From assembly GCA_951406725.2 (NCBI GenBank), contig OX597817.1, positions 22,320,001 through 22,384,000 of the forward strand: DNA of 64,000 nt. Reading direction: 5' to 3'. Shown here in pieces: positions 4,316-55,679 of the stretch. Origin of the DNA: Octopus vulgaris (taxonomy: Eukaryota). Position 1 is the stretch's first letter. Every line of letters starts with the position of its first letter. The notes under the pieces are model-generated. The model did no database searches. It worked only from the letters and a program-made list of their open reading frames with translations, and was not told where the DNA came from. The position numbers were made by a program, and so were the translations under genes.

Positions 4316-4784
4316 TTATACATTTGACATCACAGGGTTCAGCACAAACATCATTGGGTTCAGCACAGCTATAGTGTGTGAAAGCTGATTTTCAGAACAA
4401 TATCTTAAGAATACAAGTGTCTATGGAATACTCAGCAACTTATGTCCTAATTCAATGAGTTGGCAGTGCAGTTAATCAACTGACTGGAATTCACAACAAA
4501 ACCATTAGCAATCTAGTAATATGCTTTTTTTTTTTGCTTTTTATGCATGCATGTGAAAGAGGGAATATTTATGTATATGGGGTTCCATCTCAGTTGTACA
4601 GCATACAAGCAATTCAAAATGGATATCCTCTTTGAGCAGAATAAGTTGCCAGCCTTGTCTGTTTTCATGCTTATTACTCAAATGGTGTTCTTTGCTTCAT
4701 ATTTATATCTACTCTAAAACAATTGCGGCGTGGAAGGTGTTTGTAAGCCATTTAAGAAACACACAAAAGCCGTTCAATTCACTT

Positions 4785-5530
4785 CCTGCAACTCAACTTG
4801 ATTTCGAGCCGGGTCGTCTGCTGCTGGAGAGGACCGATCAGGTAAAGGACCTGGGTATCTTGGTGGATTCCTCCTTTTCGCCTTCGGCCCAGTGCGTCCA
4901 TGCTGCCAACAAAGCGCGCGGAATTCTGTTTTTGATTCGACGGTCATTCGGAATGCTCACAGCAGCCATATTCCTGCCACTCTATGTCACACTGGTGAGA
5001 CCCATATTGGAGTATGGGTTTCAAGCCTCTTCTCCTTATCTCCTCAAAGACATACAGCACCTCGAAAGAGTCCAGAGGCTGGCTACCTGCATGGTTCATG
5101 GTCTCAAAAATTTGTCCTACGAAGAAAGGCTGAGGACGCTCGACCTTTGTTCTCTTGAAAAACGCCGCCGCCGTGGTGATCTCATTCTCGCCCACAACAT
5201 CATAAGCGGGAAGTGTAACCTCTCGAAAGAGCTGTTCTTCACTCCTGCTCTGGAGTGTCGGCTGCGGGGTCATTCCGAAAAGCTCTACCTGCGACGATTT
5301 CATCTCAATCGAAGGAGAGGAGCTTTCTCCGTCCGGGTTGCGGATCCGTGGAACAAGCTGCCAGACGAGATGGTGAAGATGCCGACGACCGCTTTGTTCA
5401 AAGCCTCCCTGGACCTCAAGTGGCCTGAACTCTTTACATGAACACCACCCTGTACTTAACTCCATGTCCCCCTACATGGCCTTGCTATTTGCTTTTGAGC
5501 CAAATTAACTAACTAACTAACTAACTAACT
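4785..5530 (+). mobile_element. CR1-clade LINE, 5'-truncated; RT C-terminus open to stop at 5441
   Basis: KDLGILVD, LYVTLVRPILEY, LERVQRLAT, LSYEERL, RRRRGDLI, RLRGH, PWNKLP motifs; (AACT)n tail. Confidence 0.92.
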
Positions 5531-18988: not shown

Positions 18989-19346
18989 AATATTAAAATA
19001 ATGCTATCATTTGTAATCATTTTTAAGAATAACAAGTGAGGATTTGCTGTTGGTTTGAGAATACACCAAGACTAAAAACCAAATTTACGTTGAAGACCAA
19101 GTTGGCTGCAAATTTCCAGTTTCATCTATTGGTTCCTTCAGTTAGTGGAAGAATCTTCTTCTACTAGTGTTTTTATAAAGGGAGGAAAGCTTCATCAAAA
19201 GAATGGGTAATGATAAGATGGATTTCACAATATAAGAATTTCAATGTAAACAAAAAATATTCTTTTCATGAAATTGAATATTGAAAGATGCCCAATGTAT
19301 ATAAATATACATTATTTACATTCGATGGATATTTGTCCTCATCTTT

Positions 19347-20989
19347 ATATGAAATTTGGATTAGAAAAATGCGCCAAAGTAACCATGAAAAGAGGAAAAC
19401 TAGTTAAGAGTAGCAACATCACACTAGATAAAACCAATGAAATAAAAGAATTAGACCAAAGCCAAACTTACAAATACTTAGGAATCCATGAACTAGATAA
19501 GACACAACACACACAAATGAAAGAGGAAATAAAAAAAGAATATTATAGACGAGTTAGATCAATACTAAAAACAGAGCTCAATGCTAAAAACAAGATAATA
19601 GGTATTAACACTTTAGCTGTCCCAGTTATAAGTTACAACTACAATATCCTTAACTGGACACTAAATGAACTGACCAAAATAGATAGGAAAACAAGAAAAA
19701 TAATGACAGGATCTAGGATGCATCACCCAAAATCTGACATAGAAAGACTATATATACAACGTATAGAAGGTGGTAGAGGCCTTATACAGCTGGAAAACTA
19801 CTATAAAATAACCACCATAGGACTGCAAAAATATCTACTTCAGAAGGAAGAAAAACTGATACAAATAGCGGCAAAACACGAGCAAAACAAAAAACTGTAC
19901 TCAGTATTTAAGGAAGCTGACAAATACAAACAAGAAATCATACCACCTAACAAATATGAAGAAGAAGAAGAAGAAGAAGAAGAAGAAGAAGAAGAAGAAG
20001 AAGAAGAAGAAGAAGAAGAAGAAGAAGAAGAAGAAGAAGAAGAAGAAGAAGAAGAAGAAACAACAAAAGCTATAAAACAAATGAAATCCAAACTAAAACT
20101 AGAACAGCAAAGAACCATGATAAAACGATGGCAAGAAAAGCCCCTTCATGGTAAATACTGGACTAAACTAAATGTAAAAGAAATAGACAAAGAAAAATCC
20201 CAGCAATGGTTGAGAAGCTCAGAACTCAAAGCAGAAACAGAGGGATTTTTAATTGCAGCACACAACCAAAGCCTCCCCACCAGAAATTACTAAAAACATG
20301 TAATGAAAAGAAATATAACAAGTAACTGCAGAATATGTGGAGATGGACAAGAAACAATAAATCATATTATCTCTGGCTGCCCAGTCCTGGCTAAGAAGGA
20401 ATATATTCACAGACATGACAGAGTTGGAACCTACATACACTGGAAGCTATGCCAACATTATGGAATAACAACAGAAAAAAGATGGTATAGGCACACACCA
20501 GAAAAGGTCACAGAAAACGAGAAAGCAACCATACTCTGGGATATGCCGATACACACAGATAGAGAAATTAAGGCCAACAGACCAGATATAGTTGTCAGAG
20601 ACCATGAAGAAAAAAAATGCTTTCTAATTGATGTATCAATACCGGAAGATATCAACGTGTCTCTAAAAGAAATGGAGAAACTTTCAAAATACATGACCTG
20701 GAAATAGAGGTAACTAGAATGTGGAATCTAAAAACAGAAACAATCCCTATCATAGTAGGTGCATTAGGCATGATAAAAAAATATTCAGAGAAATACATCA
20801 CAAAAACACCGAGACTTACAAATATATATAACATACAGAAAATTGCACTACTAGGCACTGCACACATCCTACGCAGAACACTTTCCATACAATATCCATC
20901 AGAGCATCACAACAAATCACTGCACATACCCAAGGCACACAGAGCTGCACTCGGTAGTGAAGTGAAAGCACGTTATAAAAATAAAACTA

Positions 20990-20993
<4 letters not shown>
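19347..20993 (+). mobile_element. R4/Dong-like non-LTR retrotransposon (RLE endonuclease), 5'-truncated pseudogene
   Basis: MKFGLEKC, YKYLG, RKTRK, EGGRGL, CRICG..ETINHIISGC (CCHC), RHDRV, RPDIVV..LIDVSIP..EKLSKY; stop at 20291 and frameshift ~20693; ends in (TAA)n. Confidence 0.92.
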
Positions 20994-21033
<40 letters not shown>

Positions 21034-21049
21034 TAATAATAATAATAAT

Positions 21050-21239
21050 AATAACATCTGAAAATACCGTAGGAATGTGAAGCCAGGTTCGAAATTTCCC
21101 CAAGACACCTGATGAAGGTTGGAGGGTATATCAGCTGAAAAGTTGTGTTAACAACAAACAAGATGAGGACAAATATCCCTCAAATGTAAATAATGTAAAT
21201 AATGTACATAATTCCTCATCTCTTAAATATAGAACTGTA
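21050..21239 (+). mobile_element. HHR-bearing tail of the tRNA-(TAA)n-HHR SINE
   Basis: Matches 40308-40455 on the minus strand; GACAC CUGAUGA A GGUUG..CAGCU GAAA AG UU GUGUU at 21104-21149. Confidence 0.75.
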
Positions 21240-22119
21240 GTATATAAATATGTTGGTGTGTATTTGTGTTTGTTCCCACCACTATTTGACAACTGGTGTT
21301 GGTTTGTTCATTCCCCCTTAACTTAGACTGATAGACTTTGTAACAGGCTTAAAAATTAAGTATTGGTTTCAATTTGTTCGAAATAAAGACCCTTCAAGGC
21401 AGTGTCCAAATTAAAAATAAAATGTAAATGATACGATATTCTAAAACCCATTCTTTTGATTAGGGTTTCCTCTCAATCTGTAAAAACAGGAGTAGGCAAA
21501 AATCCTTTCATTTGTTGACGAAGCTGATATAGGCAAAGACTATAGTTTTATGATCATTAATATCACTGAGTCAATAGGTAACTGGACAAAATTTGAAATG
21601 CTTCATGCCAAATCATGTGATAAGTTATAACACAATATGAACCTCTAACCCAGCAATGTTCTTCTTCATCTCTCATTATTCCTGGAGTGAACTCACCTCT
21701 GCTCTTTATAACTAAGTCGTCATGTTTTACATTGGATGAAGAAATTTTGCTTAAGATATTTTAAGTTGCCTTGACCTAAGCAAGTATGTGGTTTGCCTGG
21801 AGCATAATACCAGGAAACTAAGTACTTGAAGTTCAAAGGTTCAGTTTAAGATTGATAGACATGAAATACAAGTAAAAATATTTGCAGGAGGCCAAATGAT
21901 ACTTTAAAACAGATGAGCAGAAAAATTCTAGCAGCTTAAAAATGATACAGGATTGTTACAAATCTTATAGATGTTTCTGTTCAAAGGGTGATCCCTAGCT
22001 AGGCTGCTGGTTTGGTGAATCATCAAAATATTTAGACAGAAACTTTACTACAGCTGTATAAAAGATGCCTTAGGTTTAAATAGCCTGTCAATATAACAGA
22101 TTAATATAATCAATATATA

Positions 22120-40200: not shown

Positions 40201-40307
40201 AGTGTCAAATATATATTAGTTTAAAACTGCATAAGATTATCATCAAATCTATATTTATTCTGAAGCTGTATTCCATAGAATATTGGTGATAAAACTTTTG
40301 AAAACAT

Positions 40308-40579
40308 TATTTACATTATTTAGATTTGATGGATATTTGTCCTCATCTTGTTTGTTGTTAACACAACTGTTTGGTTGATATACCCTCCAGCCTTCATCAG
40401 GTGTCTTGGGGAAATTTCAAACCTGGGTTCTCATTCCTAAGGTATTTTTCAATGCTATTATTATTATCATTATTATTATTATTATTATTATTATTCAGAT
40501 CACTGCCTGGAATCGAACTTGGAATCTTGGGGTTAGTAGCCCGTGTTCTTAACCACTACTCTATATGCCGGTGGGCATA
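40308..40579 (-). mobile_element. tRNA-headed SINE with (TAA)n spacer and hammerhead-bearing tail
   Basis: Head ggcatatagagtagtggttaagaacacgggctactaaccccaagattccaagttcgattcc (A- and B-box-like); (TAA)n; GACAC CUGAUGA A GGCUG..; 12-bp TSD ttttgaaaacat (40296-40307 / 40580-40591). Confidence 0.8.
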
Positions 40580-42969: not shown

Positions 42970-43228
42970 ATCATCATCATCATCATCATCATCGTTTAGC
43001 ATCCGCTTTCCATGCTAGCATGGGTTGGACGGGTCAACTGGGGTCTGTGAAGCTGGAAGGCTTCGTCAGGACCAGTCAGATCTGGCAGTGTTTCTACGGC
43101 TGGATGCCCTTCCTAACGCCAACCACTCCGCGAGTGTAGTGGGTGTTTTTTACGTGCCACCTGCACAGGTGCCAGACAGAGCTGGCGAACGGCCACGAAC
43201 GGATGGTGCTTTTACGTGTCACCGGCAC
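42970..43228 (-). mobile_element. RTE-type 3' UTR element (family C)
   Basis: Family C sequence with (GAT)n tail. Confidence 0.8.
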
Positions 43229-43282
43229 ATATACATACATATATATTATATACATACATATATATTATATACATATATGTAT

Positions 43283-44030
43283 GTAATTGTTGATGACGAT
43301 CTCAGTTGGAGTGCACACATCAACAAGAAGGTCGATATAGCTCGTAGGATGAGTTCCTGGATCTTAAGAACTTTCTGGACCAGAGAACAAGGTGTCATCA
43401 TACCACTTTTTTCCTCCTTTGTACGGCCACACCTTGAATACTGCTGCCCACTGTGGTCTCCTCACACAAGACAAAACATCTCCAGAATTGAGTCACCCCA
43501 GAGGGCTCTCACTAAACAAATTGAAGGCATGGCTGCTCTTGATTATTGGGATCGCCTTAAAGCCTTGAAACTTTACTCCCTCCAGCGTCGCCGTGAGCGG
43601 TACATCATTTCTACGATGTGGAAAATATACCGCCAACTTTGCCCAAACGACCTAAACATTAGCTTCAAGGTTCATCCAAGACTTGGACCACGGGCTATAC
43701 GTCCCCTGCCAAATTCAAGATCACAACATACATGTACACTGCAACATAATTTCTTTTCCTCAACAGGCCCTGCCCTTTTTAACATTGTCCCGAGGGAGAT
43801 CAATGAGGAAAAGGATCCCATCAACTTTAAACAGAGTCTGGATAGATTCCTTCAAAGAATACCAGATAAGCCACCCATAATTGGATACAACTCACCCAAC
43901 AAGAACTCACTACTTGAACAAAACTTGACTTAAATAGGATTCGAATAATCCTATCAGGTGGTGCTATTAAGTTAGACATGGCCTGGACCAATCTCTGGTT
44001 GAAACATATCTAAGTTTTATCTAAGTTTTA
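43283..44030 (+). mobile_element. CR1-like LINE, 5'-truncated; RT C-terminus open to 43933
   Basis: VDDDLSWSAHI, FVRPHLEYCCPLWSP, LKLYSLQRRRERY; same family as 147-498. Confidence 0.9.
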
Positions 44031-54570: not shown

Positions 54571-54605
<35 letters not shown>

Positions 54606-54682
54606 TGATAATAATAATAATAATAATAATAATGATGATGATAATGATGATGATAATAATAATAATAATAATTATAATAATA

Positions 54683-54745
<63 letters not shown>

Positions 54746-54787
54746 GTAATAATAATAATAATATGATAATAATAATAGTAATAATAA

Positions 54788-55185
54788 CTGTTGTCATAGG
54801 TGCCCTGGAAATGAGACTAAAACAATACCTGTTGTCATAGGTGCCCTGGGAATGATAGCGAAAGGGACTGGTTGCTACCTAACTCAGATACCAGGAAACC
54901 CCAAAATGGCAGAAATTCAAAAGATAGTGCTCATGGGAACTGCTCATATCCTACGCAAAATACTCTCTATGTAATCCCAAGGTTTAAAACAAACTTTTTT
55001 TTTATTATTATTTTTTTATTTTTTTATTTTTTTAAATTTTTATGTATTAGACATTCACTAGTACAACACCACCAAAAAAAAACCCCTCAAATATATGGCA
55101 CAAAACTTCCAACCTGTTGTCTCTTGAGGTCTCTGGGTGAGACTTGGAGCCAACTTGTACAGACATAAAGCAAAAGTCAAACATA
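54788..55185 (+). mobile_element. R4/Dong-like 3' end (second family)
   Basis: PVVIGALGMIAKG..EIQKIVLMGTAHILRKILSM*; (TAA)n on both sides. Confidence 0.8.
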
Positions 55186-55187
55186 GA

Positions 55188-55237
<50 letters not shown>

Positions 55238-55242
<5 letters not shown>

Positions 55243-55635
55243 AGAAAAAAAATGCTTTCTAATTGATGTATCAGTACCGGCAGATGACAACGTGTCTCTA
55301 AAAGAAATGGAGAAACTCTCAAAATACAAAGACCTGGAAATAGAGGTAACTAGAATGTGGAATCTGAAAACAGAAACAATTCCTATCATAGTAGGTGCAT
55401 TAGGCATGATAAAAAAATATTCAGACAAATACATAACAAAAACACCAGGACTTACAAACACATATAACATACAGAAAATTGCACTACTAGGCACTGCACA
55501 CATCCTACGCAGAACACTTTCCATACAATAACCATCAGAGCATCACAACAAATCACAGCACATACCCAAGGCACACAGAGCTGCGCTCGGTAGTGAAGTG
55601 AAAGCACGCTATAAAAATAAAAATAAAACTACTGA
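55238..55635 (+). mobile_element. R4/Dong-like 3' end, same family as 19347-20993
   Basis: Near-identical to 20603-20993; intact EKLSKYKDLEIE..RRTLSIQ*. Confidence 0.9.
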
Positions 55636-55679
55636 ATAATAATAATAATAATGATAATATTATTAATTGCAAATTTTTG

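Follow-up and report, generated by a model that had tools for sequence, protein, structure and literature searches.

Within the genome of Octopus vulgaris, a truncated R4/Dong-like LINE lies between an inverted and a direct piece of the tail of a hammerhead-bearing SINE, and one pair of 12-bp repeats encloses the whole arrangement. Was the LINE carried to this place as cargo, i.e. was a LINE-SINE chimera retrotransposed as a unit by Penelope-type (PLE) machinery, as a sequence-only reading of the locus had proposed, or did it nest in a SINE that was already there? Here, we analysed the locus in its window, the whole 64,000-nucleotide stretch of contig OX597817.1, together with related loci elsewhere in the 2.8-Gb assembly. 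The parts of the unit are given in Table 1.

Table 1. Features of the insertion unit and its flanks (window positions; TSD, target-site duplication).
Feature	Position	Strand	Basis or remark
Older host SINE, 5' part, left of TSD	19282..19296	+	joined flanks align to intact copies; repeat family D14
Left TSD, 12 bp	19297..19308	+	exact 12-mer match
Inverted arm, 38 nt of SINE tail (tail positions 106-143)	19308..19345	-	36/38 to 21160-21197
Junction base, no match to arm or LINE	19346..19346	.	
5'-truncated RLE-type (R4/Dong-like) LINE, end of RT region to 3' UTR	19347..20992	+	CCHC finger, endonuclease motifs between
(GAA)34 microsatellite expansion in LINE ORF	19958..20059	+	
(TAA)n tract, SINE spacer and LINE target	20993..21054	+	
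SINE tail, long 3' end, 185 nt	21055..21239	+	fixed family end
Minimal type-I hammerhead motif	21104..21149	+	core 21109-21115 and 21137-21144, degenerate at 21141
Right TSD, 12 bp	21240..21251	+	exact 12-mer match
Older host SINE, 3' part	21252..21326	+	joined flanks align to intact copies

The contents first described for the unit, namely a truncated Dong-like LINE, (TAA)n and a hammerhead tail, were each located inside the TSD pair, and the inverted 38-nt copy of the tail was reproduced. This inverted arm starts at the short 3' end of the SINE family, and its first base, 19308, also closes the left TSD. Neither a tRNA-like head nor TAA lies between the inverted arm and the Dong, and the head is absent from the window unit as a whole. 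The single unmatched base at the arm-LINE junction has counterparts at five other arm junctions, where 1-nt extras likewise occur.

The unit is a single TSD-bounded insertion that splits an older SINE. When joined over one TSD, the flanks align to intact copies of this older SINE (2 of 37 hits span the join, with 77-80% identity), and because they rebuild an intact element, the unit represents one insertion. The 12-bp direct repeat reported around the whole unit is exact and has no further occurrence on either strand of the window; its right copy starts directly behind the fixed 3' end of the SINE family. TSDs with at least 9 matched bases were found in 28 of 44 two-armed family loci; among 1892 shuffled flank pairs, 10 had them. 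Although the 12-mer is itself AT-rich and surrounded by a TA-rich linker, a match at a fixed place is expected by chance at only about 6.5e-7, which together with the family TSDs and the rejoining flanks identifies a real TSD and leaves hardly any credit to a fortuitous repeat around unrelated insertions or rearrangements, an explanation that is largely refuted already. Cargo within one TSD pair is found in the window and likewise in the in-place nests L031, L123, L166 and L172. No second copy of the right flank was found elsewhere in the same assembly.

The carrier belongs to an abundant and dispersed SINE family built of a tRNA-like head, a (TAA)n spacer and a hammerhead tail, as seen in 29 other best matches to the tail. 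Further copies lie at window positions 40304-40575 on the minus strand and at L009, L013, L019, L165 and L207-L234. The head of many copies holds motifs which we take, by eye, to be A- and B-box-like; ARAGORN reported 0 tRNA genes on four family loci. The tails end in two ways: among 140 hits, 67 had a long 3' end, 63 a short one, approximately 33-42 nt apart, and 10 ended elsewhere. In 41 of 44 head-to-head two-armed loci a long arm is paired with a short one, and so it is in the window, which bears out the PLE-style inverted 5' piece recognised there and supports Penelope-type outer ends of the unit. Since none of 30 GIY-YIG loci, out of 148, proved to be an autonomous partner PLE whose tail matches, we infer mobilisation by a PLE from the ends of the SINE; on this basis, the host family looks like a Pol III SINE that Penelope machinery mobilises. 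One GIY-YIG family (L179, L184 and others) retains many open frames of 781 aa; it showed neither a minimal-hammerhead motif near the endonuclease nor any likeness to the SINE tail.

The two arms of a locus share more rare variants than expected (35 non-majority variants in common in 30 pairs against 10.2 expected, i.e. 3.4 times expectation overall). Arms therefore mostly start alike, and their divergence dates the SINE insertion. Sometimes, as at L031, L035 and L020, one arm reads CTGATGA and the other CTGAAGA, a disagreement at the variable base of the hammerhead core which hints that some insertions may use two different RNA templates. The tail at L204 is 100% identical over 150 bp to that at L028/L203 on different contigs, while the own arms of L028 differ at 7 of 154 positions despite this identity; gene conversion, a young daughter copy or chance could be responsible. 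Short inverted arms together with direct arms beginning in TAA also occur in copies free of Dong (L015, L018, L020, L207, L208). The 5' end of the SINE is often a short palindrome of an inverted head end and a direct head start (L018, L165, L220, L232), which resembles the self-priming palindromes described at inverted PLE junctions.

Of 122 tails, 106 contain a CTGANGA core and 41 the complete minimal core, and the motif fits the published min-HHR description (PMC4209133). The window hammerhead is degenerate: base 21141 deviates from the GAAACGTT core and the predicted fold lacks stems I and II, which 2 of 2 other copies form. The hammerhead folds of those two copies were not better than shuffles (z-scores not significant), and an Rfam search returned no hit.

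The LINE piece starts at about base 2400 of full-length copies of 3,960-3,976 bp and is broken by a premature stop at 20291-20293 and a 1-nt deletion near 20693. It contains a zf-RVT match; a full-length copy encodes an 813-aa frame with RVT_1 and zf-RVT, the best structure hits of which are R2 proteins (E 1e-33), and the endonuclease motif was recognised by eye only. These domains and the likeness to R2 suggest an RLE-type, R4/Dong-like element. The earlier statement that such elements target (TAA)n agrees with the copies in this genome, in which 72 of 89 Dong 5' ends lie directly behind a TAA-type tract and (TAA)n also follows the 3' ends; the other 17 are without a direct TAA tract, and L044, L051 and L102 among them lie outside any such SINE. 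Private non-CpG changes of the window Dong number 20-22 in 1510 sites (1.3-1.5%). Its in-frame (GAA)n has expanded to 34 units; the repeat is expanded in several other copies too and short in others, e.g. L126. The full-length Dongs at L162, L163 and L170 have two long frames and a fixed start after a few extra purine-rich bases behind the TAA tract.

TAA tracts of this genome also hold other insertions. At window positions 54571-55667, TAA-targeting elements are stacked: a first (TAA)n is followed by the 3' terminus of a different element, a second (TAA)n and a further, 5'-truncated copy of this Dong (93% to 20604-21025). An element of about 600 bp, in which no long frame was noticed, recurs in TAA tracts including the SINE spacer (L031:5270-5870, L235, L152, L168, L239) and is possibly a non-autonomous partner of Dong. 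The two largest non-microsatellite frames outside the unit, at 4557-5441 and 43019-43933, presumably resemble C-termini of CR1/L2-type LINE reverse transcriptases, as judged by eye.

At least 31 other Dong-(TAA)n-tail chimeras exist in the genome. They were collected in successive searches (2+4+2+2+20+1, duplicates dropped) and all of their 5' ends were read; as the searches were designed to find chimeras or near relatives, 31 is a lower bound and does not give a frequency. A TAA-type tract lies upstream of the Dong in 29 of the 31, the pattern of in-place nests, although it is degenerate at L172 and followed by a short rearranged piece at L240. A SINE head stands upstream in 25 (24 by BLAST, L151 by eye), and the truncation points of the Dongs are scattered. 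Hence, further chimeras exist, as had been predicted, but they look like independent in-place nests. They also confirm that Dong inserts into the (TAA)n of the SINE, a step which for the window locus itself we infer. Two chimeras are exceptional: at L145 no TAA separates the head from the Dong any more, and at L166 the inverted arm abuts the Dong directly inside the TSD, which is the architecture of the window. When eight loci in which no head was visible were followed further upstream, none showed an inverted arm running straight onto foreign sequence.

Which order of events, then, produced the window unit? We consider it probable that the SINE was inserted first and that the Dong nested later in the same site, with upstream SINE sequence probably lost. 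In-place nesting is the most economical explanation because each of its steps has examples in the genome. The SINE would first have split the older one, leaving the 12-bp TSD, the long-ended direct arm and the short-ended inverted arm that are seen today. As the literature suggests, a Penelope-type RT/GIY-YIG protein would have acted on the SINE in trans, with reverse transcription starting at two internal sites and on both nicked strands. The LINE, whose family shows the respective preference, would then have targeted the (TAA)n and nested in the SINE spacer. Finally, the upstream TAA, plus the head if there was one, would have gone missing, be it by target deletion at the 5' junction of the LINE, by a direct arm that already began in TAA, or by a deletion that later removed sequence between the inverted arms. 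For R2, truncated 5' junctions are reported to show both deletion of the upstream target and non-templated bases (PMC2718515). A 1-nt extra is common at PLE-type arm junctions, and the junction thus gives no support to a joint made by the LINE.

The chimera at L166 can be dated. Its arms differ at 19 of 142 positions (non-CpG 16/123), while its Dong carries 2.7% private changes, from which an arm difference of 5.5% would be expected (P = 0.0003). The arms are therefore older than the Dong, and the window layout can arise by later in-place insertion; this dating presumes one template for both arms. At L145, the arms differ at 5 of 74 positions with a Dong at 1.0% (P = 0.015). Our preference for nesting is a judgement that draws on L166 as a dated analogue, L145 as a partial one, no proven transduction in 31 chimeras and a neutral local clock.

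That clock was read from the window itself. Its arms differ at 2 of 38 positions, both of them among four CpG-prone sites, and 0/34 non-CpG differences together with a TSD matching at 12/12 fit a young insertion, which counts against nesting. The joint likelihood is 0.13 for young and 0.05-0.07 for old arms, a ratio of about 2 in favour of young when all sites are used (38+12 paired sites), and the window's own clock is thus neutral with regard to transduction. A perfect TSD was rejected as a sign of youth, as the old L166 has one too. The 29 long arm pairs show 3.5% non-CpG divergence per lineage, with overdispersion; about 22% of this youth-biased sample fit an age as young as the window Dong, so the SINE machinery may still have been active. 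Raw ages had suggested that the SINE family stopped before this Dong, an idea that was lost once CpG sites were excluded. The window tail deviates from the family majority at 9 of 185 positions, 5 of them non-CpG, and is more diverged than its Dong, which speaks for nesting although the counts are small; positions 1-105 hold 8 of the 9 changes and positions 106-185 are nearly pristine.

The main competitor of nesting is transduction by a PLE, which we regard as unlikely. Here, a donor nest would have been transcribed through its tail, probably by Pol II read-through, and Penelope machinery would have copied the tail, TAA and 1.65 kb of Dong as one 5'-truncated event. Such an event would yield one TSD-bounded unit without head or TAA between arm and Dong, and it suits both the perfect TSD and the lack of non-CpG arm differences. 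PLEs are reported to begin reverse transcription internally on RNA (PMC11167929) and to have moved host DNA in trans (PMC3846280). Read-through RNA could come from loci such as L126, L162, L163 and L170, where a full-length Dong is followed by the tail, and the nearly pristine tail end is what a selected donor might show. Against transduction, however, L166 reaches the same layout in place, two of the four CpG-prone sites differ between the window arms, and most arm pairs are older than the window Dong when the pooled divergence is taken. A run of T acts as a Pol III terminator, and the T5 run at 20246 inside the window Dong therefore argues against a chimeric Pol III transcript. The missing tail-matching PLE among the 30 GIY-YIG loci also speaks against it.

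Transduction further calls for a donor, and neither a donor nor a sister copy was located by Dong similarity, tail similarity, a chimera query or exact patterns, with the best 40 of hundreds to thousands of candidates scored in each DNA similarity search. The rare variants of the window Dong are shared to at most 2/21 with any of 113 other Dong copies. By informative sites, the nearest Dong (L082/L123) lies in an in-place nest whose downstream tail is short-ended, and L082 was rejected as donor as it lacks a long end there. L008 has two tail variants in common with the window, but was likewise rejected for its shorter Dong, its younger lineage and its upstream head. The diagnostic 20-mer of the tail occurs at 2 other sites in the genome, neither of them adjoining this Dong, and the genome has no second match to the arm-Dong junction at <=1 mismatch. 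A full-length donor locus, as the sequence-only reading had expected, was consequently absent among the 113 Dong copies, the 31 chimeras and the pattern matches (best 40 candidates scored); it may have been missed or lost from the population. With no donor and with the same layout above older arms at L166, the central proposal that PLE machinery retrotransposed the chimera as a unit found no confirmation. An empty site does not separate nesting from transduction, since both predict a single 12-mer in a fully empty allele. Junction microhomology was dropped as a discriminator: PLE-type arm junctions show overlaps and small insertions, and three passed strict filters. Rejected as well was 3' transduction by the Dong's own machinery, as the unit did not land in (TAA)n and is bounded by the long and the short end of the SINE.

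A template switch dispenses with the donor altogether. Reverse transcription from the tail of the SINE RNA would have jumped at (TAA)n onto the 3' end of a Dong mRNA, which would explain the absent donor and the absent upstream TAA together; TAA repeats are present in both RNAs and the same 4 bases precede TAA in both elements. We nevertheless rate it as very improbable, because it predicts equal ages, whereas the tail, with 5 non-CpG changes among its 9, and the Dong at 1.3-1.5% appear unequal, albeit on small counts. That Penelope machinery by either route, nested donor or TAA switch, inserted a Dong-tail RNA at a non-TAA site is conceivable but doubtful. If true, a PLE-dependent Pol III SINE would act as a shuttle that carries a site-specific LINE beyond the microsatellites it normally occupies.

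What does the locus mean under either reading? If the Dong nested in place, as we prefer, the locus is ordinary, and it teaches that PLE-type ends and one TSD around a cargo do not prove transduction when the cargo targets the carrier's microsatellite. If transduction were true, one retroelement class would have moved another, extending the trans-capture of host DNA by PLEs, with small consequence since the cargo is dead and truncated. The broader and more interesting lead is the host SINE family, which offers thousands of natural records of PLE integration with long and short arms, shared variants and self-complementary 5' junctions. The octopus SINE paper of Ohshima and Okada from 1994, Repbase/Dfam or the repeat library of PMC13282606 may already contain this family.

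A search of titles and abstract openings yielded neither a cephalopod tRNA SINE with a PLE tail nor LINE transduction by PLEs. PLE trans-capture of host DNA, schistosome Pol III hammerhead elements and a link between PLEs and retrozymes are already published. PLE insertions are described with head-to-head inverted pLTR arms, an optional tail of 30-40 nt and TSDs of about 10 bp (PMC3846280, PMC8557442), and their hammerhead lies upstream of two starts of reverse transcription, the tail being the stretch between the two internal starts (PMC11167929). The window SINE shares dual ends, inverted arms, TSDs and hammerhead with Penelope/Poseidon, Adineta Pen2a and Anolis PAc. Unlike PLEs, the window unit has no RT or GIY-YIG ORF, and the SINE family has a tRNA-like head and (TAA)n in place of the pLTR body. 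The NRPS gene between Pen3a pLTRs (PMC3846280) is likewise foreign sequence within pLTR-type ends and one TSD. In that case, the gene is placed between two direct pLTRs, an inverted pLTR is present in addition, and an allele with the empty site was observed, whereas the window unit has one direct tail, holds a cargo that targets the spacer by itself and is known from one assembly.

The LINE resembles Dong/R4 in its TAA target, its RT and CCHC finger and its R2-related protein. TAA targeting is reported for B. mori Dong, DongAg and DongBg (PMC3812793) and recent activity of Dong-R4 for Octopus vulgaris (PMC13282606). Schistosome Sm-alpha/Sj-alpha combine a Pol III promoter with a hammerhead in a SINE-like element (PMC6765202), and a PLE origin is proposed for animal non-LTR retrozymes (10.64898/2026.07.22.740005). 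Both share a non-coding build and a type-I hammerhead with the octopus SINE. In contrast to these elements, which are described as tandem repeats, the octopus SINE is dispersed and has head-to-head arms, PLE tails and TSDs, and unlike either of them it possesses a (TAA)n spacer that collects LINEs.
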